The notes under the pieces are model-generated. The model was given only the letters and a program-made list of their open reading frames with translations. It did not search any database and was not told where the DNA came from. Shown here one piece after another: positions 40,952 to 58,252 of a stretch of DNA of 64,000 bases; within the stretch, counting starts at the first letter, position 1; every line of letters begins with the position of its first letter. The translations under genes were made by a program, and so were the position numbers. Location of the stretch: NCBI GenBank assembly GCA_963678065.2, contig CAXXVZ010000002.1:608001-672000 (forward strand). Direction: 5' to 3'. Source of the stretch: Treponemataceae bacterium (GTDB lineage: Bacteria > Spirochaetota > Spirochaetia > Treponematales > Rectinemataceae).

Positions 40952-42448
40952 TTACTTCAACGCCTCGTAGATCTCCTTGAAACTCTCGATGCCCGCCTCC
41001 AGGTTTTCGATGATCTCGCCCGCGAGGAGGTCGGGGTCTGGTAGGTTGTCCAGGTCGGTCAGACTCTTGTCCTTGATCCAGGTGATGTCGAGGCTGGTCT
41101 TGTCGCGGGTCGCGATGTCCTCGTAGCTGAACCTGCGCCAGCGGCCTTCGGGGCTGGTTTCGGCGTTGTAGGTTTCCTTGCGCTTGTTGATGTTGGCCGG
41201 GAGGTAGCAGTCGACGAAATCCTTCAGGTCTTCCAGCTGAAGTGGATTCTTCTTGAGGGTGAAGTGGATGTTGGTGCGGAAATCGTAGATCCAGATCTCC
41301 TTTGTCCAAGGCGTCCTGGCGGCCGGGTGGTTGTCGAAGAAGAGGACATTGGCCTTGACGCCCTGCTTATAGAAGACACCGGTCGGAAGTCTCAGGATTG
41401 TGTGGAGGTTTGTCGTCTCCATCAGCTTCTTGCGGACGGTCTCGCCGACGCCGCCTTCGAAGAGGACATTGTCGGGGAGGACGACAGCGGCGTGGCCGTC
41501 GGATTTGAGGAGGGTCCGGATGTGCTGGAGAAAGTTCAGCTGCTTGTTGCTGGTGGTGACCCAGAAATCCTGGCGGTTGTAGGTCAGGTCTTCGCTGTCC
41601 TGCTCGCCCTCCTCGTTGGTGAAGGTCATGCTGCTCTTCTTGCCGAAGGGAGGATTGGCCAGCACATAGTCGACCCGCAGTCCCGTGTCGGAGATGAGGG
41701 CGTCGGCGGAGGAGATGAAGCTGTCGCTCTCGAAGTCGCCGATATTGTGCAGGAAGAGGTTCATCAGGGCCATTCGACGCGTCGACGGGACGATTTCGTT
41801 GCCGTAGAAGGTCCGGTGCTTGAGGAATTCCTTCTGGTCCTTGTCCAGGGTATGGTTCGCGGGGTTGGCGATGAAGTCGTAGGCCGCGAGAAAGAATCCG
41901 CCGGTGCCGCAGGCCGGGTCGGCGATGGTTTTCTGCGGCTCGGGGCGCACGCACTCCACCATCGCGCGGATCAGGGCGCGGGGCGTGAAATACTGTCCGG
42001 CTCCGCTCTTGGTGTCCTCGGCGTTCTTTTCGAGCAGCCCTTCGTAGATCTTGCCCTTGATGTCCGCGCCCATCGTGCTCCACTGCTCTTTGTCGATCAT
42101 GTCGACGAGCTTGTAGAGCTTGGCCGGGTCCTGGATCTTGTTCTGGCTCTTGAAGAATATCTGTCCCAGCACTCCCTTGGCCTGGGAGAGTTCCCGCAAG
42201 AGGATGGAATAATGCGCTTCGAGTTCGGCGCCGCGCTTCGCGGTCAGGCTCTCCCAGTTGCAGGCCGCGGGAATGGGCAGTTTCCGGCTGTAGGGCGGGC
42301 GGCTGAACTCGTCGGCCATTTTCAGGAACAAGAGGAAGGTGAGCTGCTCCAGATAGTCGCCGTAGCCCACGCCGTCGTCGCGGAGCGTGTTGCAGAAGCT
42401 CCAGACCTTGCCGATTATGCTCGATGTGTTGTTGACTTCGTTGGTCAT
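40952..42448 (-). CDS. hsdM: Second type I N6-methyltransferase (EcoKI-like HsdM), no cognate S in window
   Basis: NTLRDDG...EQLTFLLFLKM, GQYFTPR, DPACGTGGF, NPPF. Confidence 0.88.
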   Translation of the reverse strand: MTNEVNNTSSIIGKVWSFCNTLRDDGVGYGDYLEQLTFLLFLKMADEFSRPPYSRKLPIPAACNWESLTAKRGAELEAHYSILLRELSQAKGVLGQIFFKSQNKIQDPAKLYKLVDMIDKEQWSTMGADIKGKIYEGLLEKNAEDTKSGAGQYFTPRALIRAMVECVRPEPQKTIADPACGTGGFFLAAYDFIANPANHTLDKDQKEFLKHRTFYGNEIVPSTRRMALMNLFLHNIGDFESDSFISSADALISDTGLRVDYVLANPPFGKKSSMTFTNEEGEQDSEDLTYNRQDFWVTTSNKQLNFLQHIRTLLKSDGHAAVVLPDNVLFEGGVGETVRKKLMETTNLHTILRLPTGVFYKQGVKANVLFFDNHPAARTPWTKEIWIYDFRTNIHFTLKKNPLQLEDLKDFVDCYLPANINKRKETYNAETSPEGRWRRFSYEDIATRDKTSLDITWIKDKSLTDLDNLPDPDLLAGEIIENLEAGIESFKEIYEALK

Positions 42449-43425
42449 GCGAGTTCCTTTCTGTTCAGGATGCTGATCACGACGTTTTTGACCGTCTCCA
42501 TCTCTTCGGGTTTGCTGACGGCGATGAACAGGGTGACGGCCGCGAGGGCATCGTTGCTGATGACGGGATTTCCGGATTCCGCATACAAAAGGCTGTTCTT
42601 TTCCATAAAGTAGAGAAAGCAGGCTGCCGCGATGCGCTTGTTCCCGTCGACGAAAGAGTGGTTCTTGACGATCAGATACAGCAGCATGGCGGCCTTTTCT
42701 TCCAGGCCCGGATACAGCTCGAGGCCTCCATAACTCTGATAGATCTGCCTGACCGAGCTTTCAAAGCCGTCATCCTTTTCCCTGCCGAACAATTTGGAGG
42801 CGAACTCGCTTCGCATGGACTCGATCACCGCCCGGTATTCATGGATCTCGACGACAATAGCGGGGCGTCTGGTCACCCCGGCAGTATCCAGTGTCTTGTG
42901 GTCGTAGTCATCCAGGAGGGAGAGCCCCTGCGCAAACTCCTCAAGCAGCTGCGCAAGGTTGCCTGCGTCGACAAGGTCTATCACCCGATGTTCGATCGAT
43001 CGGCGGAGTATGCTGATACCGTTTTTCAGGTCCCGTAGCTCCATGTCCCGCTCGGCAAGTCGTTTTTGGTTGATGGAGTAGCCGTCGACAAGGTATTCCC
43101 CGAGCCGTTTGGTGGCCCACTGGCGGAATTGGGTACCCTGTTTCGAGTTAACCCGGTAGCCGACGGAGATTATTACATCGAGATTGTAATACTCTACCTG
43201 ATAGGTTTTACCGTCAGTGGCAGTTGTTGCATTTTTTGCAACAACTGAAGTCTGATTCAATTCACCTTGTTCGAAAATATTCTTGAGGTGCCGGGAAATG
43301 GAGGATTTATCCCTGTCAAACAAGGATGCGATCTGTACCAAAGTAAGCCAGAATGATTCTTCTTCAAAACGTACTTCGACCTGAGTCTGCTTGTCCTCGG
43401 CCTGATAAATCAGAATCTCATTCAT
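42445..43425 (-). CDS. RhuM-like N-terminal domain fused to Fic/Doc
   Basis: YNLDVIISVGYRVNS...QFRQWAT; Fic motif HSFVDGNKRIA. Confidence 0.85.
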   Translation of the reverse strand: MNEILIYQAEDKQTQVEVRFEEESFWLTLVQIASLFDRDKSSISRHLKNIFEQGELNQTSVVAKNATTATDGKTYQVEYYNLDVIISVGYRVNSKQGTQFRQWATKRLGEYLVDGYSINQKRLAERDMELRDLKNGISILRRSIEHRVIDLVDAGNLAQLLEEFAQGLSLLDDYDHKTLDTAGVTRRPAIVVEIHEYRAVIESMRSEFASKLFGREKDDGFESSVRQIYQSYGGLELYPGLEEKAAMLLYLIVKNHSFVDGNKRIAAACFLYFMEKNSLLYAESGNPVISNDALAAVTLFIAVSKPEEMETVKNVVISILNRKELA

Positions 43426-43754
43426 ATCCGTTTCCTCCCCGGCACACCGCCAGCGCGAGTTGTCGCATTTTTTGCAACTTATAAAGGAGCGCCCTTTGCT
43501 TTCGTGGAGGACTGATACTCCCGCTTCAACTAGTCGCGCGAATGTTGCCAAGTCGGCATATATGCTATTCAGGTATTGAGATAGCCATTCATTCATTCCT
43601 GGAAGGCAGTGTGCGAAATTTGCACTATGCATTTTTTTGCATGATGCTTTTCGCTTACGGTCTGTCTTCCTTGAACCAGAATCGACGCCAGCTTCGTTGC
43701 TGAAGGAATTGTGCCACAAACCGTGGCACAATTCGATGGACCGAAACCAAGGCC

Positions 43755-46700
43755 TCATGCTTCCTTCTCGATTATGCTTCTATAAATTTCCTTCGCGAGT
43801 AACGGAAAAACCGTCTTCTGGAAGTTCGAGTCGTCCATGTAGCGGGTGACGATGCTGTCGTTTTCACCGATTCTCTGCATCATCAGGGATTCGATAATGG
43901 ACTTGATGCCGAGCTGAAATTTGTCGAGAGGATTGGCGCGGGCGGTCTGGATGATCCGCTCGTCCTTGGAAGCTTTTTCCTTTATCTGTTCGAAAAATAG
44001 CCGGTCCTCTTCCGAGAAGTCCGTTCCAAAGCGTTCGTTCACGGTCTGGATGATTTCGGAGAGCGGTTTTTCTTCGTCCTTCGATGCGCCAGTTCCTACA
44101 GCTGTCGGCGATTTGACGCCGTACTGTTCTTCCTTTTCCAGAACGATAGTTCCCGACGACACCTTCTCGATCCTGTAATACTGGAGTGCAACCTCTTTTT
44201 CAGGATGCGGATTCACTATGTCTTCGCCCAGTTCGAGGTGAGGCAGCAGATATCGGCTGTAGCTGTAAAGCATCTCCAGTTCCTGGTCGGTGTAGGGCAT
44301 GATCTGGCTGACGAAGGAATAGAACCCGGCAAAAGCCGTCAGTTTTTCGTAGAACGATTCCCGCTTTTCTTCTTCGAGCGCCCTGAAACGGTCCACCGCG
44401 GGCTGCACCATCTTTTCCATCCGCGCATGGTCCGAGGGATTTTGTCTGTACTGCGGCAGATAGAAAACATGGCAGAATCCGACAACTTCCGACCAGAGAT
44501 ATACCTGAAAGGCATTCAATTCATGTTTCAGCTTCTCGAGGTGGGCGGGATCTGATTCCTCCTGCAAGGTCGTCACATTGTAGTAGGGTTTGAAAGCCTT
44601 GTAGATATCTTCCGCTTCGTTGACGAAATCCAGGACGAAAGGCTCTTCCTTTCCGGCGCTCATCCGGTTGAGCCGCGAAAGCGTCTGCACCGCCTGCACG
44701 CCATCGAGCCGTTTGTCCACATACATGGCGCACAGAAGCGGCTGGTCAAAACCAGTCTGATATTTGTTGGCGACCAGAAGAACCTGATAATCGGATGAAT
44801 CGAACTTGTCCGGCAGCTGGGATTCGGTAATGTTCTTGCCGGTCACCACATCGATGTTCATGGAGGATTCTGTAAAATCAGCCTCGGTGTCGGGATCTCT
44901 CACCGTTCCGCTGAACGCGACGAGGGGCCGAATGTCGGAATAATGGTTCTCCTCGATGTATTTCTGAAAGGACAGCATATAGCGTACCGCATGGAGCCGC
45001 GACCCGGTGACGACCATAGCTTTCGCCCGTCCGCCGAGTTTCTGCCTCACATGCTCGCGGAAGTGTTCGACCATGATTTCAGTTTTCTGCTCGATGTTGT
45101 GGGGATGTAAGGCCATGAATTTGCCGAGCTTCTTCTGCGCCTTCTTTTTCGGCATGGCCGGATCGTCTTCTACGCTTTTCACCAGCTTGAAATATGTCTT
45201 GTAGGTTGTGTAGCGCTTCAACACGTCCAGGATAAAGCCTTCTTCGATGGCCTGTTTCATGGAATACGTGTGGAATGCCTCGGGTTTTCCGCTCGATCCT
45301 TTTCGGCCGAAAAGTTCCAGGGTTTTCCCCTTGGGCGTCGCGGTAAACGCGAAAAAACTGAGATTCTTCTGTCTGCCGCGGGATTCCATGACTCTATTCA
45401 GGCCATCTTCCCAATCCAGCTCGCGCTCCTCGCCCTCGGATATATTCTCGCCGAACTCTGTCCCCGCACCAAGGATCCGCTTGAGCTCGCGGGCCGTCTC
45501 GCCGGTCTGGCTGGAATGGGCTTCATCTACGATGACCGCGTACTTTCGGGCGGCGATCGCATCCTGCCACTCTTTCGCCTTGGCGATGGCTGTTTCTTCT
45601 GGACTGTCCGGATTGTCGGCGCCGGCGATATGCAAAAGGCCGCGAAGGATGAATGGGAATTTCTGCAGGGTAGTGATGACGATCTTGGTCCCGTCGACCA
45701 GGGCTTCCGCGAGCTGGCGGGAGTTTTCATCGATAGCCTTCACGACGCCCTGGGCGTGTTCGATCTGATAGATGGCATCCTGCAATTGCTTGTCCAAAAT
45801 TTTGCGATCGGTGATGACCACGACACAATCGAAAACCTTGGCGTCAGCCTCGGTATGAAGGCTCGAAAGTCTATGCGAGAGCCAGGAAATGCTGTTTGTC
45901 TTCCCGCTTCCGGCAGAATGCTGGATCAGATAGTTGTTGCCGGCCCTTTCCGATCGCGCGGAGCGAATCAGACTGCGAACCGCGTCTAGTTGGTGATACC
46001 GGGGAAAAACCAGCGTCTCTCTGGTGACTTTTTTGCGTCCGCCCGCTCCGTCATCGAGCGTTTCTTCGCTCGTTTCAAGAAAGGCAAAACTGCCGATGAT
46101 ATCCAGAAAGCTTTCCCGTTCGAGTGTTTCTTCCCAGAAGTAGCCGGTGCGGTGCCCCGATGGATGCTGGGGATTGCCCCTGCCGCAGTCGATTTCTCCG
46201 GGAGCGCTGCCGCGGTTGAATGGCAGGAAGTATGTTTTTTCTCTGTTCAGGCGGGTCGCCATATACACTTCGGCGGGATCGACCGCAAAGTGAACTATCG
46301 CCCCATTTTTGAACCGGAAGAGCGGCGCGCGGGGATCCCGATCGGCCTTGTACTGGGCTACGGCATGTTTCCAGGTCTGCCAAGTTGCCGGATTTTTCAG
46401 CTCAAGCGTAGCGACGGGTAGTCCATTGAGGGAAAGCACCATGTCGACAGTGCTGGAATCGGCCGGATGACAGGCCACCTGCCGGGTGACATGCAGAAGA
46501 TTCTTGCCATAGAGCTCGATCGTCTCCGCGACCAGTCCGTGGGCCGGTTTGAAAAACGCCAGCTTGAAGGTCTTGCCATAGAATTTGAAACCGTGACGTA
46601 TGATGTGCAGCGTTCCTTTGGTCTCGCGCTCCTTGACGAGCATATCCACCAGTTTGGATGACAGTTCGCCGCCATGGAGCTTTTCCATCTGCGCCCAGAG

Positions 46701-46853
46701 TCCGCCTTGAGTACTCTTGATGAAGGCGATGACATATTCAGGAAAAAGTGCGCCGGTTTTGTCCCAAACCAGATTTGATCCCGCGATCCAGCCTCGCGCG
46801 GCCATGGTCTCCTGTGTATAGGCCTCAAAGGCTTTCTCGGTTGTCGCTTTCAT
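43755..46853 (-). CDS. hsdR: Type I restriction endonuclease subunit R
   Basis: D...NGLPVATLELK, QHSAGSGKT, DEAH, FTATPK, QTGFDQP. Confidence 0.93.
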   Translation of the reverse strand: MKATTEKAFEAYTQETMAARGWIAGSNLVWDKTGALFPEYVIAFIKSTQGGLWAQMEKLHGGELSSKLVDMLVKERETKGTLHIIRHGFKFYGKTFKLAFFKPAHGLVAETIELYGKNLLHVTRQVACHPADSSTVDMVLSLNGLPVATLELKNPATWQTWKHAVAQYKADRDPRAPLFRFKNGAIVHFAVDPAEVYMATRLNREKTYFLPFNRGSAPGEIDCGRGNPQHPSGHRTGYFWEETLERESFLDIIGSFAFLETSEETLDDGAGGRKKVTRETLVFPRYHQLDAVRSLIRSARSERAGNNYLIQHSAGSGKTNSISWLSHRLSSLHTEADAKVFDCVVVITDRKILDKQLQDAIYQIEHAQGVVKAIDENSRQLAEALVDGTKIVITTLQKFPFILRGLLHIAGADNPDSPEETAIAKAKEWQDAIAARKYAVIVDEAHSSQTGETARELKRILGAGTEFGENISEGEERELDWEDGLNRVMESRGRQKNLSFFAFTATPKGKTLELFGRKGSSGKPEAFHTYSMKQAIEEGFILDVLKRYTTYKTYFKLVKSVEDDPAMPKKKAQKKLGKFMALHPHNIEQKTEIMVEHFREHVRQKLGGRAKAMVVTGSRLHAVRYMLSFQKYIEENHYSDIRPLVAFSGTVRDPDTEADFTESSMNIDVVTGKNITESQLPDKFDSSDYQVLLVANKYQTGFDQPLLCAMYVDKRLDGVQAVQTLSRLNRMSAGKEEPFVLDFVNEAEDIYKAFKPYYNVTTLQEESDPAHLEKLKHELNAFQVYLWSEVVGFCHVFYLPQYRQNPSDHARMEKMVQPAVDRFRALEEEKRESFYEKLTAFAGFYSFVSQIMPYTDQELEMLYSYSRYLLPHLELGEDIVNPHPEKEVALQYYRIEKVSSGTIVLEKEEQYGVKSPTAVGTGASKDEEKPLSEIIQTVNERFGTDFSEEDRLFFEQIKEKASKDERIIQTARANPLDKFQLGIKSIIESLMMQRIGENDSIVTRYMDDSNFQKTVFPLLAKEIYRSIIEKEA

Positions 46854-47219
46854 GCTTGACTCCGGTTCAAAATGATTTGAACTGTCAAGTATTCCTTGAC
46901 AGTTGACTCCGAAGAAAGCTCGCCTTCCCTGAAACAGTTGCCGATATGCAGGCTGATATTCTGCTTTTCACCGCTTCCTTCCATGACTTCAAAGGCTTTC
47001 TCGGTCGTCACTTTCATCCGCGTCCCCTGAATTTTTGATCTCATAGAATCTCATAAACAACTCATTCGATCTCATGGATTCTCATAATTTGAAACGACAT
47101 ATTCATTGTACCATAACTATTTATATAACATGGTATTCCGAGCGAATATAATATTTCGCTGATTTTATGAGACCGCTTGCCGGGGCCGAGTATGTCAGCA
47201 AGGTGCTGGCTGTTGATGA

Positions 47220-48557
47220 TCATACAGCCTCCCGCACATCGATTTTGCCAGTAACCGCGGCGCTTATAAGAGCCGTCCGGTATTCCTTGAGTTTCTCGAT
47301 GACCGTTTTCACTTTGGCGGAAAGGATGTCAATTTTGGAGGTTTCGCGGTCGAGAAAGGCGGCGATGGCTTGTTGTTCGGGGAGTGGGGGGAAGCAAAAA
47401 CGAAACTCTTTTACATAATCATCAGGCACACGTTTCTGTCCACCCGCCCCATACATCCAAGCTTCGCCATTTTTTCGAAACTCATCCGAAATAGACAAGT
47501 AATACAGATATTCCACATCAAGATCTTTGCCTGGTCGCATTACTGTGAGCTCGGTTGTCCCAAAACCGCACCCGGTTCCAAGACCACGCATAATTGCGCC
47601 TTTGCCATTTTCAAAGCAAGGAGTGATTTTCGCAAAGGCTACATCACCTTCTGCAAAGAAGGTATAGCCAGTGCTTACTTCCGAAATTGGTCTCGTAGCA
47701 TCCAATCTCAGTGAACCGTCGCCACCAACAGCTTCCATTGGCAAAAATGCGAGTTCTGTCTCAAAATCGAGGTGATTTGCTTCTTGTTTGCTTGGATTCA
47801 TGCTGAGCATATATCGCGATCTCTTCAACACCCAATGCTCCGGCACATCCCCCAGCCATTCCACGCTAGAGGGTTTCATCATGACAGTTGCATCCAGTCC
47901 CTTGGTGACAGCCCGGGAGATGAGCGTCGAGCGCTGTTCCGCCAGCAACTCAAGCAGACGCTCTTTCTTGCCGAGGAGCGCATCGATACGCCCCGTCTCG
48001 CCGTCGAGAAAGGTGGCGATGGCTTGTTGTTCGGGGAGTGGGGGGAAGCAAAAACGAAACTCTTTTACATAATCATCAGGCACACGTTTCTGTCCACCCG
48101 CCCCATACATCCAAGCTTCGCCATTTTTTCGAAACTCATCCGAAATAGACAAGTAATACAGATATTCCACATCAAGATCTTTGCCTGGTCGCATTACTGT
48201 GAGCTCGGTTGTCCCAAAACCGCACCCGGTTCCAAGACCACGCATAATTGCGCCTTTGCCATTTTCAAAGCAAGGAGTGATTTTCGCAAAGGCTACATCA
48301 CCTTCTGCAAAGAAGGTATAGCCAGTGCTTACTTCCGAAATTGGTCTCGTAGCATCCAATCTCAGTGAACCGTCGCCACCAACAGCTTCCATTGGCAAAA
48401 ATGCGAGTTCTGTCTCAAAATCGAGGTGATTTGCTTCTTGTTTGCTTGGATTCATGCTGAGCATATATCGCGATCTCTTCAACACCCAATGCTCCGGCAC
48501 ATCCCCCAGCCATTCCACGCCGCTGCTCTTGTATTTCGGATAGGCTCTCGTCTTCAT
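47220..48557 (-). CDS. hsdS: Type I specificity subunit with two identical TRDs
   Basis: SGVEWLGDVPEHW, PPLPEQQAIA twice, LISAAVTGKIDV. Confidence 0.93.
   Translation of the reverse strand: MKTRAYPKYKSSGVEWLGDVPEHWVLKRSRYMLSMNPSKQEANHLDFETELAFLPMEAVGGDGSLRLDATRPISEVSTGYTFFAEGDVAFAKITPCFENGKGAIMRGLGTGCGFGTTELTVMRPGKDLDVEYLYYLSISDEFRKNGEAWMYGAGGQKRVPDDYVKEFRFCFPPLPEQQAIATFLDGETGRIDALLGKKERLLELLAEQRSTLISRAVTKGLDATVMMKPSSVEWLGDVPEHWVLKRSRYMLSMNPSKQEANHLDFETELAFLPMEAVGGDGSLRLDATRPISEVSTGYTFFAEGDVAFAKITPCFENGKGAIMRGLGTGCGFGTTELTVMRPGKDLDVEYLYYLSISDEFRKNGEAWMYGAGGQKRVPDDYVKEFRFCFPPLPEQQAIAAFLDRETSKIDILSAKVKTVIEKLKEYRTALISAAVTGKIDVREAV
47361..48520. repeat. 506-bp exact direct repeat inside hsdS (47361-47866 = 48015-48520)
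   Basis: 654-bp offset, no mismatch seen. Confidence 0.92.
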
Positions 48558-49576
48558 CGTCCGCCCTCCTTCCGCTCAAGAGTCCGTTCCAGCTCTTCCA
48601 GCTGGGCCAGATCTTCCCGGTCAGCCTGGCTGGCTTCCTCTTCCACGCGGCGGGCGTTGAATTCGTTGTAGCGCTGGTGGGCGATCTCCACCATGGTTTC
48701 GTGGCTGATCCCGCCAGGACTGCGCAAGATCGGCTTTTCGTTGAACTCGAGGAGCCGGTCCACATTGTTCCGCCAGTACGCGAGCGAAAGCTGCTTGCGC
48801 TCCTTGACCCGCAGTTCGGCCTGCTCCAGAAAGATCACCACAAGGCGGTTGAGGGTATCGATCTCGTCGGCGCCGAGGTAATTCTTGGCGACGATGACAT
48901 CCTGCCTGCGCACCCGACTGCCGCTCCAGGTGGTGAGAGCCATATTCGGCTCATTGGGACTGGAACGGGAGACGACCAACTCCGCCGCCGTCGCGCCGGT
49001 CACGGCGTAGAGAAGCTTGTTCTGCACCTCCGCGAAGAAGAGCTGGGCGGCCTTCTCATCATCCTTGTAGTCGACACTCAGGGCGAAGAGGTCGCGGACC
49101 TTCTGGTAGAAGCGTTTTTCGGATGCGCGGATCTCCCGGATTCGCTCCAGAAGCTCGTCGAAGTAATCCAACTTGCCGGGATTCTTGAGCCGCTCGTCGT
49201 CCATCACGAAGCCCTTGATCAGGAGTTCCTTGAGCTTGGTCGTTGCCCATTTCCTGAACTGAGTTCCCCGTGGCGACTTCACCCGATACCCGACGGCCAG
49301 GACTGCATCCAGATTGTAGTAGGACACGTCGTAGATTTTACCATCAGCGGCAGTTGTCCGGAAATTCCGGACAACTGAAATCTCGTCCAACTCACCCTCG
49401 GTGAAAATATTCCGAAGGTGCTCGCTGATGGTTCGCTTGGATCGTTCGAAAAGCTCCCCCATGAGTGCCTGCGAGAGCCAGACAGTGTCCCCGGCGAGTC
49501 TGCACTCGATACGGTCTTTCCCGTCATCAGTATGGTAGATGATGAGTTCGCCACGGTTGTTCGACGATTCGCTCAT
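48554..49576 (-). CDS. RhuM family protein
   Basis: YNLDAVLAVGYRVKS, KGFVMDDERLK, IREIRASEKRFY, AKNYL. Confidence 0.9.
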   Translation of the reverse strand: MSESSNNRGELIIYHTDDGKDRIECRLAGDTVWLSQALMGELFERSKRTISEHLRNIFTEGELDEISVVRNFRTTAADGKIYDVSYYNLDAVLAVGYRVKSPRGTQFRKWATTKLKELLIKGFVMDDERLKNPGKLDYFDELLERIREIRASEKRFYQKVRDLFALSVDYKDDEKAAQLFFAEVQNKLLYAVTGATAAELVVSRSSPNEPNMALTTWSGSRVRRQDVIVAKNYLGADEIDTLNRLVVIFLEQAELRVKERKQLSLAYWRNNVDRLLEFNEKPILRSPGGISHETMVEIAHQRYNEFNARRVEEEASQADREDLAQLEELERTLERKEGGR

Positions 49577-51654
49577 CTTTCGCCCTCGGCGCTGCCGGTG
49601 ATCCCGGCCAGCATGGCCACGATCTCGCTTTCCAGGGCCTTCACGTCGGCGGCGATATCTTCCAGCGCCCGGGGAGGCTCGTAGCAGTAGAAATGGCGGT
49701 TCATCGGTATTTCGTAGCCCACCTTGGTCTTTCCGTGGTCGATCCAGGCATCCGGCACATGGGGCAGGACTTCGCGCGCAAAGTAGGCTTCGATATTTTC
49801 CTTGAGCGGAACGTTCTCAGTATCGCGCAGATCGGCGTCGGGCTCGGGGTTGCCCCTGGCGTCGCGGCAAATTTCGGCGGTCTCGTCCTTCTCGCCCAGG
49901 GCTTCCATCACGAGCTTCAGTTCCGCCGAGGAGAGACGCAGCCCGGATTTCTGGTCGATGGCTTTAAGCTCCTTCAGGAAGGTGGTCCGGTCCCTGAAGA
50001 GTTTACCCCCGCTGACCGCGCCGAGATCGACCAGCACCGCCTTGATAGCCTCGCGCCGCTTGGTCCCAGCGTCGATCTTCTTGTCGCTCTCGGCGATCTT
50101 CTGAAATCCGCGCAGACCATCGAGGAGGGCGACCCGCTCGGCGCTGGCCTGGAAGTTCAGCCGCAGGGGCCGTTCCACTGTAATCTTGTTGTATCCAAAG
50201 TCCATGTTGTCGAAGATTTTGCTGACGATGACGCGCTTCGTAACTCCATCGACCTCAGTCGCGCGCGTTTCGTCATGTACGAAATTGCCGTAGATCCTGC
50301 TGATCTCGCCGATCTGATCCGGGCGATTTTCTTCGCCGTCGCCGATCTGGTTGCGCTTGTTCCCCAAACTCTTGCGCATCTTGACAGAGAACTCGCGCGC
50401 ATCGATCAGCTGGATCTTCCCCGCCCGTCGCTTTTCTTTCCTGTTGGTGATGATCCAGATGTAGGTCGAAATGCCGGTATTGTAGAAAAGCTGATCCGGC
50501 ATGGCGACGATAGCTTCCAGCCAGTCGTTCTCGATGATCCACTGACGGATATTCGACTCGCCGCTTCCCGCGTCGCCGGTGAAGAGCGGCGATCCGTTGA
50601 ACACGATCCCGATGCGGCTTCCTCCCTCGGCTGGAGAGCGCATTTTCGAAATCATGTGCTGCAGAAAGAGGAAAGAGCCATCGTTTATTCTGGGCAACCC
50701 GGCCCCGAAGCGCCCACCGTAGCCCAGCTTCGCCGCTTCATTTTCGATCGTCTTCTGCTGCTGTTTCCACTCCACGCCGAAGGGCGGATTGGCGAGCATG
50801 TAATCGAAGGTGGCTCCCTTGAATCCATCCTTCTCGAAGCTGCAATCGGGCTTGATGTTGTCGGAGTCCTCGCCCTTGATGAGCATATCAGCCCGGCACA
50901 CCGCGTAGGCTTCGTCGTTCAAGTCCTGACCGTACAGATGAGGCTGGGCTTCGCTGTTCAGGGTTCTGATATAGCGCTCCGCGACCGAGAGCATTCCGCC
51001 CGTGCCGCAGGCCGGATCGTAGATGGTCTTTACGACATGGCTCTTGCGCAGGTCAGTTTCAGGCGAGAGCAGGAGGTTGACCATGAGCTTTATGACTTCG
51101 CGCGGCGTGAAATGCTCTCCGGCCTCCTCGTTCGACTGCTCCGCCCCTATCCGGATGAGTTCCTCGAACACATAGCCCATCTGCATGTTGTCGATATTCC
51201 GCGGAGACAAGTCGATCCTGTCCGAAGCGAATTCCTTGATGACATTGAAGAGCAGATTCTTTTCATTCATTTTTCCGATCTGCTGCCCGAACTCGAACTT
51301 CTCGAATATCTGGCGCACATTTGGCGAAAAGGCATTGATGTAGCTGTTCAGGTTCGGGGCGACCTGATTCGGATCGTCCAGAAGCTTCCCGAAGGTAAGC
51401 CTGGACAGGTTGTAGAACGGCACTCCCGTGATCGTCCGCAACTGGGCGCTGACGATATTCTCCGACTTGCCCTTGAGTCTGTCGTATTCGGCCAGAACCG
51501 CATTCTTGGTCGATTCGAGAATGCAATCAAACCTCCGCAATATCGTCAGCGGCAGGATGACCTTGCGATATTCATTTCGTTTATATGGACCGCGGAGCAG
51601 ATTGCAGATGCTCCAGATGAAATTGGCCGTCTGGGCGTGGGTTTGCTGGGACAT
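49573..51654 (-). CDS. hsdM: Type I methyltransferase subunit M
   Basis: AGEHFTPREV, DPACGTGGM, NPPF, FYNTGI, KTKVGYEIP. Confidence 0.93.
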   Translation of the reverse strand: MSQQTHAQTANFIWSICNLLRGPYKRNEYRKVILPLTILRRFDCILESTKNAVLAEYDRLKGKSENIVSAQLRTITGVPFYNLSRLTFGKLLDDPNQVAPNLNSYINAFSPNVRQIFEKFEFGQQIGKMNEKNLLFNVIKEFASDRIDLSPRNIDNMQMGYVFEELIRIGAEQSNEEAGEHFTPREVIKLMVNLLLSPETDLRKSHVVKTIYDPACGTGGMLSVAERYIRTLNSEAQPHLYGQDLNDEAYAVCRADMLIKGEDSDNIKPDCSFEKDGFKGATFDYMLANPPFGVEWKQQQKTIENEAAKLGYGGRFGAGLPRINDGSFLFLQHMISKMRSPAEGGSRIGIVFNGSPLFTGDAGSGESNIRQWIIENDWLEAIVAMPDQLFYNTGISTYIWIITNRKEKRRAGKIQLIDAREFSVKMRKSLGNKRNQIGDGEENRPDQIGEISRIYGNFVHDETRATEVDGVTKRVIVSKIFDNMDFGYNKITVERPLRLNFQASAERVALLDGLRGFQKIAESDKKIDAGTKRREAIKAVLVDLGAVSGGKLFRDRTTFLKELKAIDQKSGLRLSSAELKLVMEALGEKDETAEICRDARGNPEPDADLRDTENVPLKENIEAYFAREVLPHVPDAWIDHGKTKVGYEIPMNRHFYCYEPPRALEDIAADVKALESEIVAMLAGITGSAEGER

Positions 51655-51667
51655 CGGATTATTTCCT

Positions 51668-52606
51668 TTATCGGGATTCAGTTAATTTTTTCGACTTGAT
51701 GATCGAATAGCCTGATTTTATAAGACTGACGATGTATTCCAGCTCGGAATCATCGGAAATCTGGATTTCATAATCTCCATTTCCATGATGCCCGATTCCG
51801 GAAACATCCCGGGCTACGCCCTTATGGTCGTCGAGTTCGCCTAGCGAAAGATTGATCCAGATTTTGATCGATTTTTTCTGGATCGCGATGTCGCAAAAAT
51901 TGGTAGATGAGACAAACGCGATGTACAACTTCGTAGGTCGCACCTGGATATCATCCGCGATATTGAGAATGTAGGACTTGAACTTGTCGTACAGTTCAGA
52001 AGTCGCGGGTGAGCCATTTGCCAGCTGATCGTCTTCCGAGTAGACCTTGATCTCTTTCGCTACCGTGTCGAGATCATCTGTCGGCTTGGCGATTGTCGCG
52101 ATTGATTCGGTCGCTCCCTTTGTCACCACGCGATTGAAAGAAATCGTGTTGTTGGAATACCGTCGAATCTCCCACAACTCGATCGGAAGGTCCCTGAAAT
52201 TGATCGCTTCTTTTTGATAGGTGGTAAAGGAGGGGGCAATAAAAATAACTCTTGATTGCGACCAGTCGACTTCGTTCCGCTTTAGGTTCTTCCTGGTAGA
52301 TTCATTGTACTCGAGGATAAAATCGGCCTTGTTGTTGAGCATCAAGGAAAGATACGCATAGCCTTGATCGATGACGCTGTAATTCCTGTCGCGCTTGTAT
52401 TCGATGACGATGAATGCGCGGGAATCCCCATCATAAGCCAGCGAGTCGATTCTGAACTCGCCCATCCTGAACTCGCTCCGGACAAAATCAAGCCCCAATA
52501 ATGATTTCAGATTATTTTCGCATATCGACTGGATTTCTTTTTCCAGCGTGAATGGCAGTTCCTCTATTGTCTGCAATTGGTTTTCCATCTGTCGATATAA
52601 TGCCAT
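51668..52606 (-). CDS. PD-(D/E)xK nuclease-like domain plus DUF5655-like C-terminal domain
   Basis: RIDSLAYD...IEYKR...QGYAY; C-terminal KLYIAF...RDVSGIGHHGNGD. Confidence 0.7.
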   Translation of the reverse strand: MALYRQMENQLQTIEELPFTLEKEIQSICENNLKSLLGLDFVRSEFRMGEFRIDSLAYDGDSRAFIVIEYKRDRNYSVIDQGYAYLSLMLNNKADFILEYNESTRKNLKRNEVDWSQSRVIFIAPSFTTYQKEAINFRDLPIELWEIRRYSNNTISFNRVVTKGATESIATIAKPTDDLDTVAKEIKVYSEDDQLANGSPATSELYDKFKSYILNIADDIQVRPTKLYIAFVSSTNFCDIAIQKKSIKIWINLSLGELDDHKGVARDVSGIGHHGNGDYEIQISDDSELEYIVSLIKSGYSIIKSKKLTESR

Positions 52607-52760: not shown

Positions 52761-55388
52761 CTACGCTTCCTTAATTGGTTCAATATCAAATCGTTTATGA
52801 ATTTCGTTAAATCCGAGAATTTTCGCTTTTATAATATCCCCAGATTCAATTCCCATCGTTTTTAGGCTTGTCGGGGAAAACCCTTTCCCATTTAAACCAA
52901 AAACAGTAAATACGCCATATCCCTCGACGTGTATAACTTGTGTATCAATTATGCTGCCCTTTGGATATTGCTCTTTGAGTCGTTCATAATCAATGAATGA
53001 ATCATCTTCGCTAACCCTCTTTTCCATCCAATCCTTTAGCGCAAATATATTAGAGTACTTAGGCGAAGTTTTTTCATCTAGATACTTATCATATTTGTAA
53101 TTGCTATTATCATAATACTCAAACAGGTAATTAACTACGCTTCTTGCGTTTTCCAAAATTGACTGGTGACTTAAGAAAGGAAAACTATCTTTTCTAATTA
53201 AATTATCTGCAATTTTTCGAGCTCGACTTTCATCATTATATAAGGTATCTTCAGAAATAAATGCTAAATAAAATATGTTTTGTATTAGTTCTAGATGCAT
53301 CAATCCGCCTGCAGTTATCGATACCAGCTCGCTCTCTTCTGGAATATGCTTAATTTGAGTTTCCGACACTATGCAATCTGCCAGAATGAGCTCTTGTACT
53401 TCTTTTTCAATCCTTGCCTCTGCATGACCTAAAAGCATTAGCTCTGCTTTTAGGTCACTATATCTATGATATCCCCTAGCATTTGCTGCAAATGTAGAAT
53501 CCCTATGAGCGGCAAGCCATTCAAGTATGGCTTCTCTTGCAAATGGATCCGGGAGTTCGTCATCTTTGCTCATTTTATATACATTTTTTACTCTCGAAGA
53601 TTCATCGTCATAAAACCTTTTAGTACCTTTAATAATTATCTGCATTGTTGCTAGCACGGGTATCATTTGATTTCCTGCATTCTGCCTTATTCTTACTATT
53701 GTATCCTCTAAAATGTATCCACTCTTGCAGAAATCTAGAAATATTTCCAATCCTTTTCGAATGTCTCTACCGGCTAGCCCGATAAATAAGCGTTTTGTTA
53801 AATCAGTCTGAAAAATTGATTGTAGAATTGCCTTAAGATAAATAACGACATCATCAGACTTGCATAATATTCTCATACCATTTCTAGTCGTATAATGGAA
53901 ATCTCTATGATCTTTAGAAACTTCTCTTACGACATAATCTAGTCTAGCCTGTAAAACTTGATCAAGAAATGGCGGATCGATTCTAAACATTAAATCTTTT
54001 ATCGCAGTATCAAGCGGCGGAGTTCTTCTATATTGATCGAATGTTGTATCCCTAAGCGGAAGAAAAACCATACAGTGGAACGAATTCTTAATCCAATTAG
54101 CGACATCGAACATCAACAACTGAAGGTCCCTACTACGTTTATCAGAATTATCAAGAACAATTATTGGAGATATTTTTCTCTCCGCGTAGTAATATCTTAA
54201 TAAGGCATTTAATGTCTTTATCTTATCGCTTAATAATCTTGATAAAAGATCGTATAGTTCAGACTTGTATTTTTCCGATTCTTTTCCATAAATCGATATT
54301 GGCCCTTTTTCAAAAGTCTTAATCTCATTATGGAATATTTTGAGTTGTACTTTATAATCATCAATATCTTCACCGCATTTTTCTTTAATTTGACTAATTG
54401 CCTGTTCTAATACCCAGGAATAAATAATCTCACTTGATTCAGGAGCATCATTCATATTTAAGTTGATCCATACAGTACTGGCTCTTGTGCTCTCATCTAG
54501 TGCTTTATAGTGCAAATAGTCAACGAATGTTGATTTCCCGGAACCCACACTTCCAATCAAGATGCAGACTTCATGCTTATATCTATGAATATCTTTGATG
54601 GTTTCTAGTAGTTCTACAGGCTTACCTGTATCCATAATCTTTTTTACTTCAGTAATATCAATTGCTGAAGCTCTTCTAATAATTTTTTCAATCGGATTTA
54701 CATGAGAATCTCTCTTCTTTGATTCAACGTAAGCATTTAATACGATATTTTTTCGATCTTCTTCATTTGATGGGTTATAGACATATTTGTAATCTATGGC
54801 AATGTTTGTTCCAAAGCTATTATCTCCAATTACTTCAGAGGCTGCCGCTTTACCTCCAAGTAAATACACTGGCTTAATTAGACGTCCTTTGCCTCTTATT
54901 TTTTTTAGTACTTCAGTAGCGATATTTTCAATATTTTCTTTACACGCACGTTTAATAAATTCGTAATAGCTTTTTTGAGATGCGCACATATCTTTTGCGC
55001 TAAACACTATTTCTGGTTCTTCTGTATCCCATGTTCCAATACAAGTCTTCAGATAGTTAGTGGCAACTATCAGCGAGCATGGGTTAATATTTGACGGATA
55101 AAACCCGTTTATTTCACACGCATACAATCTAGCTTCTCTATAACCGACAAGAATATCTTCCTTGGGGCTTTTCGCCTCAATTACCATAATCGGCAAACCG
55201 TTCGAAATAACTACATAGTCTGGGAAATACACCTTTCTACTACTTCCCTTGCCAATTTCCAGTTTTCGCAAATTTTCTTTTGTGCGAAAATCAGAATATT
55301 TATAACCAAGCCCTATCGGGTGAACCTGAACGAGAAGTGGCGCGATAAATTTCTGTTCAACATCACTTTCATTAGTAATTGCTTCCAC
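52761..55388 (-). CDS. HSDR_N-like PD-(D/E)xK nuclease + P-loop ATPase + C-terminal S1-like domain; putative defence protein
   Basis: ESDVEQK, FPD...IEAK; GSVGSGKST, IIVLDN; YPKGSIIDTQVIHVEGYGVF; AT-rich. Confidence 0.7.
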   Translation of the reverse strand: MEAITNESDVEQKFIAPLLVQVHPIGLGYKYSDFRTKENLRKLEIGKGSSRKVYFPDYVVISNGLPIMVIEAKSPKEDILVGYREARLYACEINGFYPSNINPCSLIVATNYLKTCIGTWDTEEPEIVFSAKDMCASQKSYYEFIKRACKENIENIATEVLKKIRGKGRLIKPVYLLGGKAAASEVIGDNSFGTNIAIDYKYVYNPSNEEDRKNIVLNAYVESKKRDSHVNPIEKIIRRASAIDITEVKKIMDTGKPVELLETIKDIHRYKHEVCILIGSVGSGKSTFVDYLHYKALDESTRASTVWINLNMNDAPESSEIIYSWVLEQAISQIKEKCGEDIDDYKVQLKIFHNEIKTFEKGPISIYGKESEKYKSELYDLLSRLLSDKIKTLNALLRYYYAERKISPIIVLDNSDKRSRDLQLLMFDVANWIKNSFHCMVFLPLRDTTFDQYRRTPPLDTAIKDLMFRIDPPFLDQVLQARLDYVVREVSKDHRDFHYTTRNGMRILCKSDDVVIYLKAILQSIFQTDLTKRLFIGLAGRDIRKGLEIFLDFCKSGYILEDTIVRIRQNAGNQMIPVLATMQIIIKGTKRFYDDESSRVKNVYKMSKDDELPDPFAREAILEWLAAHRDSTFAANARGYHRYSDLKAELMLLGHAEARIEKEVQELILADCIVSETQIKHIPEESELVSITAGGLMHLELIQNIFYLAFISEDTLYNDESRARKIADNLIRKDSFPFLSHQSILENARSVVNYLFEYYDNSNYKYDKYLDEKTSPKYSNIFALKDWMEKRVSEDDSFIDYERLKEQYPKGSIIDTQVIHVEGYGVFTVFGLNGKGFSPTSLKTMGIESGDIIKAKILGFNEIHKRFDIEPIKEA

Positions 55389-55428
55389 ATTGTTCTCCAG
55401 TTTTCAATTCTACTAACATGAAAAATAA

Positions 55429-55494
55429 ATCTATCGTTGATTTGACCCGCGAAGGGGCTTGCCCCCTGAGTCGGTGTCGAAATCTTTGTTCGAT
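55429..55494 (-). repeat. attC-like site downstream of the PHP-ATPase
   Basis: + strand TTGACCCGCGAAGGGGCTTGCCCC...GTCGG...TTGTTCGAT, similar to 30611-30673. Confidence 0.6.
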
Positions 55495-55516: not shown

Positions 55517-58252
55517 CTATCCACTTAGCGCCTTCGAAATCCGGTAGTAACGTCTATCTAGAGCATCACGGCCGCCTTCCATAACTTCACAAACGGCCGT
55601 TCGAATCCCCTTGTCTTGGAGTGCATTGTTAGCTGATACGACAATCTGTCCAGATACGAATTCCATGTGGACGACATTGTCAGAATTGGCGTTTACGGTG
55701 ATATTTGGATTGTGTGTTACTACCACCAGTTGTCTAGATTGTTTCAGTTTCTTGAGGCCGTCGACAACGAAATTTGAGATCAGTTTGGAATCAAGATCGT
55801 CTTCAGGCTGGTCAATGATCAAAGGATTGTCATTGATTGCGAGCAATAGACCTAACATTCCAGCGGTTCGTTCACCGGCCGAACCTGACTGAATATCTTC
55901 TTCTTTCCCTTGCTTTCTGAATTTTAGGACCAACTTGTCTTCTGGTACCCATATCAATATTCGGTCTATGTCCTCTGGTGTTGTTGCCTTCAGGTAGTCG
56001 AGATGCTTCGCGAGTCTCATGTCCAAGTTCTTTTTGTCTTGTTCACTAGCAGACAAGAACTCGAGGATCGCAGCGTCTCTTTTCGCCCAACGAGAAGCCT
56101 CCGGCTCGTTGATGATTTCCGCAATCAGTCCCTTGCTTGTTCTCTTTTCGTCATCGTACACATAGAGATCGTTTGCAAATTCGCCACCTGTCTTTCGTAG
56201 GAGCTCTCGGAACGTAGCTACCGCGCCCTCAGGATCGCCCATACTATGAAGTTCAATTGTCAAAAACGGATTCTTTTGATCATCGATAGTTTTCCAACGT
56301 CCAATAACTTCCCGACGCATTCTCCGTAGATCTTGTTCTTTTCCAATGATGTCGACGTACAGGGCTCTCAGTTCATTCTGGAGTTTGGAGAGTTGCTCCT
56401 TCTGGCTTGAAATATTCGCCAATTTCTCACTAATTCCTGCTCGTCGTTGAAGCAAAGTCTCGTATGTATCTGTCCCTAGTTCCCCAATCTGGTCCGCGAT
56501 GCCGTCGTATGATGACTTTGCGTTCATGTAGTCTACGAACCAGTTCAAGGTCTTTGTCAAAGCGTCAAGATTCTCGCCATAAGGCCGAAGAACCTCTTCG
56601 GCTTCTAAAAGCTTTGCCTTAGCCGATTGCAGAGCAGCGTTCAATGTCTCTACGAACTCGAGCGAATCTCCAGTGATTGTGTCGAGAATATTTTCAGGAA
56701 TTTCAACTCGAGGTACTGCATTTTCAAAGATCAATAGCTGATCAATGAAACTCGAGACATCGGTCGATATATCAGAAAAGAATCTACTAGTTTCGGACAG
56801 CTTATTGAACTTTTCCAGAATTTCCTTAAACTCTGAACTCTCAAAGAGAGCTATCCTATTGTTCGTCTGTTTGAGTTGTGCGGAAATATTTGGTTCTTCG
56901 GAGATGGCGTTATGGAGTTGCCTTCGGGCGGCGCGACCGGCCAGCCAACGTTCAATTAATTGATTTTGCTCGGCAGACCACAGAGCCTTGTCAAACTGAG
57001 AATCAATAAGTTCGAGCAACTTCTGAGGATCACCAGTAACTGAATAGAGTTCTTTCTGCGAGAATATCTGAATAGGGAAAAGTTCCTTAATGTTCGATAC
57101 TGAAGTTACTGCACTCCATGTAGATGAATCATGTTCCCGTTCTTCCAATGTGTGAAGGTAGTTGTGCCATCGAATACGATGGACTTTTGCATCCTTGACA
57201 ATTTCGACGACTATTTCAGTTGCCGGCCTGAGCATTCCCGGGCTGTCTTTCTTTCCCAATGAATAGAACTTTCTAAATTCTCCATCAATTTCCTCAGGCA
57301 TTTCATCAATACGGTTCATCGCGATCCTCAAGTAGTTGAGGACCGACGATTCCCCTGAGCCACGGCCGCCAATTATCGAAGTGAGCCATGGGCTAAACTC
57401 CGCCGACATCGGAGTGCCATTTCCGGCTTTGTAGCCATTAACTATCGAGACTGATTTGATGAAATAACGGGATAGAATCTGATTTGGGTCATTTTTTGTC
57501 ACCTCATGTCGAATCAAACCATCGTCACCATCATGAAGTGCCAATTTTAGCGCATCAAGCGATGGAGACCCCATTTTCACCCATGTAAATCTTGAGCCAA
57601 CCTGATCGGCGATATGACTATCCGATCCAATTATTTCCGAAAGACTTAGTTTGCTTTGGACATAGATGTCGGGCTTGAGAACCGAAGGATCAATCACTTC
57701 GATGGCCAATAGTCCCTCAACAGCAAGAGATTGCTTGAGAGTGTTCCCGTCTTCCTTTGTAAAGAGCCCGCATGGTCCGTCCACATGCGCGGGTACAGCT
57801 ATACCACCAGCTAGATGGATTTTTTGGATAACCTCTACAACAGTTTTATTGGTCACCGCGTCAGAAGTTCCAAATTGATCTGAAGGAAATCCAACCGATC
57901 CCAGAAGGGCATGGACTTTCTTTGTATCTGCAGTAGGGTCGAAGATAGCAAGTAAATGTGTATTTCCGGAGGCAGAAATCTCAACGCCAGGAAACAGCCA
58001 TAGTTTTCGATAGCCCTTCGCCTTTTCTTCTTCCAATTCCCAAAGTGCACGTTTTAGAATGTCAATCCAGTCGCCGGTGTTGTGATCGGTTATGGCGACA
58101 CAGTCTATTTCCTGAGCCATGTACATTAGTAGCCAGTCTTTGGCGGAGATGTTCTTGTACGCGGCGTCGCCTTTTCCAAAATCTTTCGAAGCAGGCGTGT
58201 GATTGTGAAAGTCGAACTTCCACCAAAGGGCACCATGAATCAGATGTTTCAC
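55517..58252 (-). CDS. PHP phosphoesterase + SMC/ABC-like ATPase (TrlF/Ppl-like)
   Basis: DFHNHT, TDHN, AHVD, SDSH; GGRGSGES, SAGE, IDQPEDDLD, VTHN. Confidence 0.85.
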   Translation of the reverse strand: MKHLIHGALWWKFDFHNHTPASKDFGKGDAAYKNISAKDWLLMYMAQEIDCVAITDHNTGDWIDILKRALWELEEEKAKGYRKLWLFPGVEISASGNTHLLAIFDPTADTKKVHALLGSVGFPSDQFGTSDAVTNKTVVEVIQKIHLAGGIAVPAHVDGPCGLFTKEDGNTLKQSLAVEGLLAIEVIDPSVLKPDIYVQSKLSLSEIIGSDSHIADQVGSRFTWVKMGSPSLDALKLALHDGDDGLIRHEVTKNDPNQILSRYFIKSVSIVNGYKAGNGTPMSAEFSPWLTSIIGGRGSGESSVLNYLRIAMNRIDEMPEEIDGEFRKFYSLGKKDSPGMLRPATEIVVEIVKDAKVHRIRWHNYLHTLEEREHDSSTWSAVTSVSNIKELFPIQIFSQKELYSVTGDPQKLLELIDSQFDKALWSAEQNQLIERWLAGRAARRQLHNAISEEPNISAQLKQTNNRIALFESSEFKEILEKFNKLSETSRFFSDISTDVSSFIDQLLIFENAVPRVEIPENILDTITGDSLEFVETLNAALQSAKAKLLEAEEVLRPYGENLDALTKTLNWFVDYMNAKSSYDGIADQIGELGTDTYETLLQRRAGISEKLANISSQKEQLSKLQNELRALYVDIIGKEQDLRRMRREVIGRWKTIDDQKNPFLTIELHSMGDPEGAVATFRELLRKTGGEFANDLYVYDDEKRTSKGLIAEIINEPEASRWAKRDAAILEFLSASEQDKKNLDMRLAKHLDYLKATTPEDIDRILIWVPEDKLVLKFRKQGKEEDIQSGSAGERTAGMLGLLLAINDNPLIIDQPEDDLDSKLISNFVVDGLKKLKQSRQLVVVTHNPNITVNANSDNVVHMEFVSGQIVVSANNALQDKGIRTAVCEVMEGGRDALDRRYYRISKALSG

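Follow-up and report, generated by a model that had tools for sequence, protein, structure and literature searches.

A stand-alone nuclease-ATPase protein with an exchangeable S1 tail in a Treponemataceae genome, a putative anti-phage relative of DS-14

The stretch of DNA analysed here (the window) comprises 64,000 nucleotides of a Treponemataceae bacterium genome (GenBank assembly GCA_963678065.2, contig CAXXVZ010000002.1, positions 608,001 to 672,000 of the forward strand), and at 52761..55388 on its minus strand lies a gene encoding an 875 amino acid (aa) protein, a putative anti-phage nuclease-ATPase that is related to the defence protein DS-14 and carries an additional C-terminal S1 domain. 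The open reading frame (ORF) starts with a GTG codon and its G+C (GC) content is 0.35, against 0.59 for the genome. The AlphaFold2 model of the protein, built from 120 relatives (pLDDT 88.6, pTM 0.82), is arranged in the order nuclease, nucleoside triphosphatase (NTPase) core, lid, winged helix, helical region and S1 domain; the domain limits given below are our reading of this model together with the fold matches. Besides the nuclease family HSDR_N, Pfam detects weak P-loop families only (nSTAND3, nSTAND5 and AAA_22). PADLOC 2.0 and NCBIfam 20.0 gave no full-length profile match, only short P-loop matches, and among 43 homologues scanned against NCBIfam no defence family was found above the cut-off. 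The name "type I restriction endonuclease" that many homologues carry in the databases is a misannotation. Counts in a promoter and terminator scan were at chance level (13 vs 14.2 and 4 vs 4.6, respectively).

The nuclease domain (aa 1-165, 54894..55388) is of the HSDR_N PD-(D/E)xK type, with a Pfam PF04313 match at aa 55-122 (E 9e-10, above the cut-off) that includes PD57...E71-A-K73, with E11 further upstream, and with E85-xxx-Y89, which we take to be a QxxxY-like motif; it matches the HsdR fragment 3h1t with Z 11.5 in VIA. Among 118 aligned relatives D57 and Y89 are found in all 118, E71 and K73 in 117, and E11 in 110. A linker with helices (aa 166-270, 54579..54893) lies ahead of the P-loop, the Cdc6/origin recognition complex (ORC) alignments beginning at about aa 190, and is followed by an ORC/Cdc6-like NTPase core related to signal transduction ATPases with numerous domains (STAND) (aa 271-470, 53979..54578; Foldseek, VIA and conservation). 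The Walker A motif GSVGSGKST at aa 279-287 has its glycines and K285 invariant in the 118 relatives. In Walker B (IIVLD413-N414-S-D416) Asn replaces the usual second acid, and because D-N-x-D is invariant in 118/118 relatives the motif is read as conserved rather than decayed. The active sites of both the nuclease and the NTPase thus look selected across the family. The helical lid (aa 471-600, 53589..53978) has R482, R544 and S556 invariant in the same 118 relatives, and the winged helix (aa 601-705, 53274..53588) and a helical region shared in part with tail-less DS-14 (aa 706-800, 52989..53273; model and profile alignment) precede the S1 domain, an oligonucleotide/oligosaccharide-binding (OB) fold at aa 801-875 (52764..52988). 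All of these features are on the minus strand.

The top Foldseek matches of the model are archaeal ORC2 and Cdc6 (E 3e-6 to 6e-6), and whole Cdc6/Orc1 chains, winged helix included, align over aa 190-704 with Z 11.6-12.3 (VIA). TnsC is also among the closest folds, and Avs3, CED-4/Apaf-1 and BrxC (Z 11.1) are among the further matches. As modelled, the NTPase fold is AAA+/Cdc6-like and not that of a superfamily 2 (SF2) helicase. Residues 800-875 of the model superimpose on rpsA S1 domains with Z 10.9 and 10.8 (root-mean-square deviation 2.4 and 1.9, 75 residues, VIA), and the tail matches a family-tail profile built without this protein and its nearest kin at E 7e-23; the best solved matches of the family profile are ribosomal S1 domains (E 5e-29). 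Although Pfam S1 has no match in the protein and the identity to solved S1 domains is 16-20% in the fold alignments, the predicted S1 fold is real. A first-pass annotation made from the sequence alone had described an AT-rich 875-aa reading frame with an HSDR_N-like PD...EAK nuclease, intact Walker motifs, a winged-helix-like region, a C-terminal S1-like OB fold, no helicase motifs and an architecture not recognised as a named system; all of this held, with the qualification that only Walker A has its textbook form, Walker B having the invariant Asn described above.

The DNA-binding nature of the closest folds (ORC/Cdc6 and TnsC) and the HsdR type of the nuclease would both suit a methylase-free restriction. 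Here the ATPase of Cdc6 type would load directly onto phage DNA together with the winged helix, its target being a modified base, an origin or some replication structure, and the DNA would be cleaved with the cell surviving; the tail would contribute affinity for single-stranded DNA (ssDNA) or R-loops. In Cdc6 the arginine finger is located just before strand 5, and an arginine after strand 4 is a STAND trait. In the present family the position ahead of strand 5 has no conserved arginine, R446 after strand 4 is kept in 113 of the 118 relatives, and no modification-reading domain was found in the family by Pfam scans, all of which makes such restriction an improbable mode of action.

The nearest described relative is DS-14 (working name RMOR, WP_040091717.1), a single 816-aa gene listed in the DefensePredictor Table S6 of PMC13092281 and annotated there with a PD-(D/E)xK nuclease at 27-167 and an ORC1-like AAA+ domain at 270-569 (Table S8). 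When present in E. coli it lowers the plating of phage Bas50, a Vequintavirus, by 4.7 logs, of Candy by 3.7 and of RB69 by 1.1 (Table S7), and 3 of the 24 phages tested were blocked, a range that counts in favour of the methylase-free restriction considered above. The main text of PMC13092281, as accessible, does not discuss DS-14, whose mechanism is unstudied, and elsewhere in the literature searched DS-14 is found only in the preprint of that paper. DS-14 was represented in our comparison by P0370, an E. coli protein of 816 aa with one mismatch to the 400 printed residues of DS-14 (counted by eye; WP_040091717.1 is not among the listed members of its cluster, 15 of 160 being listed), and the DS-14 family was reached through a plasmid relative. 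BLASTP of the 875-aa protein against P0370 gave 22% identity over 470 aa (E 3e-18), and HHalign against the DS-14 family gave a probability of 99.8% (E 4.5e-28) over 693 columns at about 21% identity, reaching from the nuclease to a point beyond the winged helix. Homology is collinear over about 740 residues, with the S1 tail outside it. A DS-14-family profile scores 117 of 118 representative relatives above 30 bits, the 875-aa protein itself reaching 127 bits compared to 1266-1380 for DS-14 members.

The two proteins have in common the single gene, the N-terminal PD-(D/E)xK nuclease and the ORC1-like AAA+ domain, their families share the Walker B D-N-x-D and three conserved arginines, and their models have the same best structural matches. 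They differ in that DS-14 ends in helices in the model whereas the 875-aa protein goes on into the S1 tail; S1 was matched in 0/120 members of the DS-14 family. In the phylogenetic trees (FastTree only, first 780-800 residues with the tails excluded, unrooted and with long deep branches) the DS-14 family forms a separate starred, well-supported branch, and the cold-shock-tailed proteins lie on the same side of the tree. From the alignments and trees, the 875-aa protein is a member of a tailed sister family of DS-14, outside the DS-14 clade. Because of its collinear homology to the validated DS-14, it very probably defends against phage, whatever the mechanism.

The family is widespread, patchy, AT-rich and stand-alone, and is also present in prophage accessory slots. 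In one homologue search 611 of 8000 scored candidates matched; apart from the protein itself, the top 119 matches have 41-55% identity over 95-100% of the length. An exhaustive search with the 875-aa protein found 217 clusters (50% identity level) with E no higher than 1e-30. Relatives were present at 192 of 295 stretches matched by two peptide patterns in a species-genome collection, in many phyla, and the gene was not found in 60 relatives of the source genome. The GC content of the gene is lower than that of its flanks in 64 of 66 homologous loci. Among 1013 ORFs from 80 loci no conserved partner gene was detected, the most widespread cluster occurring at 7/80 loci and at varying distances, and HsdM-like genes are near only 5 of these 80 loci. 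The nuclease-ATPase gene stands alone without a cognate methylase, and the nuclease is therefore probably held off until triggered.

Members of the family, S1 included, are found on 14 IMG/VR contigs. In a scan of 67 of 153 dereplicated neighbours one copy was flanked by P2-type genes for gpA and portal, four adjoined a cI-like repressor, one was part of a filamentous prophage and two, near-identical to each other, were next to an integrase and a primase. The gpA-gpQ slot of P2 is a defence hotspot (PMC9122126). Two queries against the isolated phage genomes of INPHARED gave no family match. On plasmids there are 21 family matches, 3 of them near full length, and several of the copies adjoin replication, relaxase or recombinase genes. 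Plasmid relatives that are tail-less or cold-shock-tailed (L130:1716-4542, L086 and H18) are in some cases interrupted by insertion sequences (IS3 in L130; ISAba1 overlaps H18), as expected of a costly gene. Homology to DS-14, prophage hotspots, patchy spread and AT richness lend indirect support to the single-gene anti-phage role proposed in the first-pass annotation.

The C-terminal tail is the part of the protein that varies in kind. Among 287 full-length relatives, a set that is biased to close relatives and to which 8 plasmid proteins were added, 231 end in S1, 9 in RRM and 3 in cold-shock domains, while 44 have no recognised tail (3 of these 44 have longer unclassified ends). All nine RRM calls are above the Pfam cut-off, and five of the nine proteins have two RRMs. 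Of the tandem cold-shock tails, two match CspA/CspE models (E 1e-14 to 1e-19, falling short of the whole-protein cut-offs) and the third does so weakly; an ESM Atlas cluster of 109 members has CSD in 74% and HSDR_N in 30%. When the tree is built from the first 780 residues, the 8 RRM rows cluster together (support 84) and are nested, along with 7 S1 rows, in a starred group, by which RRM has taken the place of S1 inside the clade of S1-tailed proteins. The sister group of the tailed clade consists of 29 tail-less rows, S1 is absent in several nested lineages, and the S1 label needs five changes on the tree. Cold-shock tails are on a separate branch, and tails have therefore been gained at least twice or often lost. 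In 63 aligned rows the mean identity is 0.21 for S1 and 0.22 for the helices preceding it, the most variable parts, compared to 0.41 for the NTPase core. Residues Y824, F827 and R866, which we take to be RNA-binding positions in S1 domains, are partly conserved in the S1 tails. One relative (P0185) carries a fourth kind of tail, a C-terminal stretch of 120 aa with no match to S1, RRM or Pfam.

Since an unrelated RNA-binding fold replaces S1, the job of the tail slot may be to bind single-stranded nucleic acid, and since the tail is repeatedly absent the core would need no tail. The S1 domain is probably accessory rather than an essential sensor because DS-14 protects without it. The first-pass annotation had proposed that S1 senses phage RNA or ssDNA, or mimics ribosomal S1, and triggers the nuclease; the sensing idea is weakened by a DS-14 that is tail-less yet protective, by the 44/287 tail-less relatives and by the repeated S1 loss. 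In the tailed clades, all the same, the S1, RRM or cold-shock tail could be the primary sensor of phage RNA or ssDNA, driving ATPase assembly and nuclease activity, with DS-14-like proteins using another trigger. Three RNA-binding modules in one C-terminal slot, the replacement of S1 by an unrelated fold, the separate cold-shock branch, the partly conserved Y824, F827 and R866, and a position where STAND sensors lie (Lee et al. 2026, PMC13581612) are all in its favour. Tail-less protection by DS-14 and the loss of S1 in several lineages speak against it, and so does the Pro that the 875-aa protein has in its S1 tail where 30/63 relatives carry His. To our knowledge, no single S1 domain tells phage from host RNA. 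On balance we consider a primary sensor in the tail rather unlikely.

Mimicry proper is weakened by the replacement with RRM, and a looser decoy idea survives, in which the tail, built into the protein, serves as a decoy for host RNA chaperones (ribosomal S1, CspA-type or RRM-type Rbp proteins) and a phage protein that binds or modifies these chaperones trips the nuclease by hitting the tail. The ribosomal S1 domains as best solved matches, the resemblance of the RRM and cold-shock tails to Rbp and CspA/CspE proteins, the fast divergence of the tail, and published phage proteins engaging S1 (PMC9409239, PMC4678825) would agree with a decoy. However, a single trigger cannot suit the OB and the RRM fold alike, so that every swap would call for another phage target; the low identity to solved S1 domains and the working of tail-less DS-14 also argue against it, and we view a decoy as having only a slim chance of being correct.

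The mechanism that we put forward, built on the anatomy of the protein and on the STAND and Cdc6 behaviour known to us, is that of a triggered DNase with an ORC/Cdc6-like core and an accessory S1 tail, to which we give an even chance. At rest the protein would be autoinhibited; upon infection the ATPase and winged-helix core would switch on and oligomerise with ATP, and the N-terminal HsdR-type nuclease would be freed to cut DNA, its presumed substrate, with cell death as the probable outcome. The S1 tail would add binding of single-stranded RNA or DNA, its presumed ligands, and so tune the phage range.

Several points weigh against this interpretation, and some of them against a role in defence altogether. 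S1 is kept in 231/287 relatives and in 14/14 viral copies, which suggests that it matters where it is present. With an identity of only about 22% and a branch of its own, DS-14 may differ in trigger and mechanism; moreover, the DS-14 strain table in PMC13092281, as accessible, is without mutants, and the dependence of DS-14 on its nuclease and ATPase is only presumed. For the tailed clade itself, defence is a prediction. The IMG/VR loci are not mutually independent. Neighbourhoods were compared at the 25 of 80 loci on long contigs, with 223 ORFs within 6 kb and PADLOC at E 1e-20, against 208 control ORFs taken from 12-kb regions of these contigs at a distance of about 95-300 kb. Loci with any PADLOC match numbered 12/25 vs 6/25 for the controls (p 0.14), and matches covering 70% of the profile were found at 8 vs 3 loci (p 0.17); when only specific matches were counted the difference was 7 vs 0 loci (p 0.01), a post hoc result since the generic families (ABC, UvrD, DinG, kinase, exonuclease, Csa3, subtilase and partial methylase) were dropped after seeing the data. 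The enrichment near known defence genes, which the first-pass annotation had named as a check on its proposal, is thus modest at most. A dense defence island with a type I restriction-modification (R-M) system, Dodola (DolA, DolB) and PDC-S26 was observed around one homologue (L065:3785-18681).

These weak statistics, the 18/25 loci without a specific PADLOC match within 6 kb, and the plasmid copies beside replication, relaxase or recombinase genes would also fit a protein outside phage defence, i.e., a cargo that is selfish or acts against plasmids, or an enzyme of unrelated nucleic-acid processing that travels with mobile DNA. Homology to the validated DS-14, the prophage hotspot positions and the conserved nuclease site make this very hard to sustain, and the triggered DNase remains the preferred reading. 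DS-14, validated but without a mechanism, is shown here to be a branch within a far larger superfamily, the members of which carry the mistaken names "type I restriction endonuclease" or "S1 RNA-binding protein". A bolder and rather doubtful extension is a superfamily of single-protein immune receptors whose NLR/Cdc6-like ATPase would be activated by phage RNA or ssDNA via the exchangeable tail and would turn on a DNase; if true, bacteria would have a STAND-like receptor that senses nucleic acid, in contrast to the protein triggers described for Avs. The natural series of no tail, S1, RRM and cold-shock offers a ready test of whether an ATPase-nuclease receptor senses nucleic acid.

The gene also bears traces of its local history. 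An attC-like repeat of the type found in the integron array of this genome (52664..52756, minus strand, nhmmer E 2.9e-13) begins 4 bases past the stop codon of the nuclease-ATPase gene on the same strand, and it is decayed, both core ends being lost in difference from the array copies. The array belongs to a chromosomal integron on a contig other than that of the window (G000:C3:97196-124711), with GC 0.41, about 14 attC-like repeats, a 1556-codon ORF at 107269-111936 and an integrase above the TIGR02249 cut-off at G000:C3:97196-98137; five further repeats are at C3:2358745-2370597, and the attC-like profile has 25 matches genome-wide, two of which are reverse-strand overlaps. Because the copy has lost both core ends, the nuclease-ATPase gene is likely a stranded integron cassette. 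Cassettes of chromosomal integrons often encode defence (10.1101/2024.07.02.601686, 10.1101/2024.07.02.601719). Cassette origin as a family trait is unsupported: the attC profile, which is specific to the source genome, had no match in 94 homologous loci, and the canonical attC pattern followed the stop codon in 0/79 homologues; the cassette origin would therefore be local history. A short imperfect palindrome at 55420-55492, between the nuclease-ATPase gene and the next gene upstream, looks by eye like array-repeat ends; it is missed by the attC-like profile at E 0.01 and is unique in the genome, and the upstream gene may be a second stranded cassette.

That upstream gene (55517..58252, minus strand) encodes a Ppl/TrlF-like protein with PHP and ATPase domains, matching PADLOC Ppl at E 9e-111 and lying above the NCBIfam TrlF cut-off and below that of Ppl_antiphage. 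Its Walker A is GGRGSGESS, with Glu for the usual Lys, and the protein may be ATPase-dead. On the other side, 40952..52606 of the minus strand holds a PDC-S18-like gene (51668-52606), HsdM, RhuM, HsdS, HsdR, RhuM-Fic and a second HsdM (PADLOC, Pfam), and the locus is a defence island. The first-pass annotation had placed the nuclease-ATPase gene between a Ppl-like gene and a type I R-M system; the upstream neighbour was correct, and on the other side the PDC-S18-like gene intervenes before HsdM. We regard these genes as neighbours rather than partners, and the Ppl/TrlF-like gene was not a recurrent neighbour in the 80 homologous loci. Within 40952-51654 there are one HsdR, one HsdS and two HsdM of different subfamilies, with RhuM and RhuM-Fic between them. 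The HsdS (47220-48557) consists of two near-identical halves with identical target-recognition domains, which would give a symmetric site.

Among other known systems, type I HsdR has the HSDR_N nuclease in common with the 875-aa protein, but it is built on an SF2 (DEAD-type) translocase and linked to HsdM and HsdS, whereas the 875-aa protein has a Cdc6-like AAA+ core and no REase_I profile match in PADLOC, and HsdM-like neighbours are scarce in its family. The possibility that it is an HsdR-like subunit of the adjacent type I R-M system was rejected, as that system has its own HsdR. Avs and the other prokaryotic STAND receptors resemble it in the N-terminal nuclease, the P-loop NTPase with intact Walker motifs, the winged helix and a variable C-terminal module. 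However, Avs proteins carry a TPR, WD40 or FGE-sulfatase sensor, while the 875-aa protein has only about 170 aa beyond the winged helix, i.e., about 95 aa of helices and then S1 with no repeats (model and Pfam), unlike the large sensors of Avs/STAND. KpAvs21, whose nuclease residues are E69/K71, may be a relative. Described Avs triggers are phage proteins (PMC13581612), and the tail of the 875-aa family is an RNA-binding fold; a term search of the readable supplementary files of that paper found no mention of the family. The BREX BrxC/DUF499 ATPases (PMC12839542) share the ORC/Cdc6-type ATPase and winged helix, and the DUF499 ATPases terminate in RRM-fold domains that are hypervariable and have a proposed role in invader recognition, but both are parts of multi-gene systems, in contrast to the fused nuclease and lone gene described here. 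CoCoNuT variants of McrBC (PMC11090510), likened to the 875-aa protein by description only, combine an AAA+-class NTPase, a PD-(D/E)xK nuclease, cold-shock-like OB folds and predicted RNA engagement, and differ in belonging to the McrB GTPase clade, in their coiled coils and in having at least two genes. A form tailed with S1, RRM or cold-shock domains was not described in the literature searched, which covered few subscription papers, and the supplements of PMC13581612 and PMC13092281 may list the family. The architecture, which the first-pass annotation had called undescribed, is therefore known in its core, since nuclease, ATPase and winged helix are those of DS-14, and new in its RNA-binding tail.

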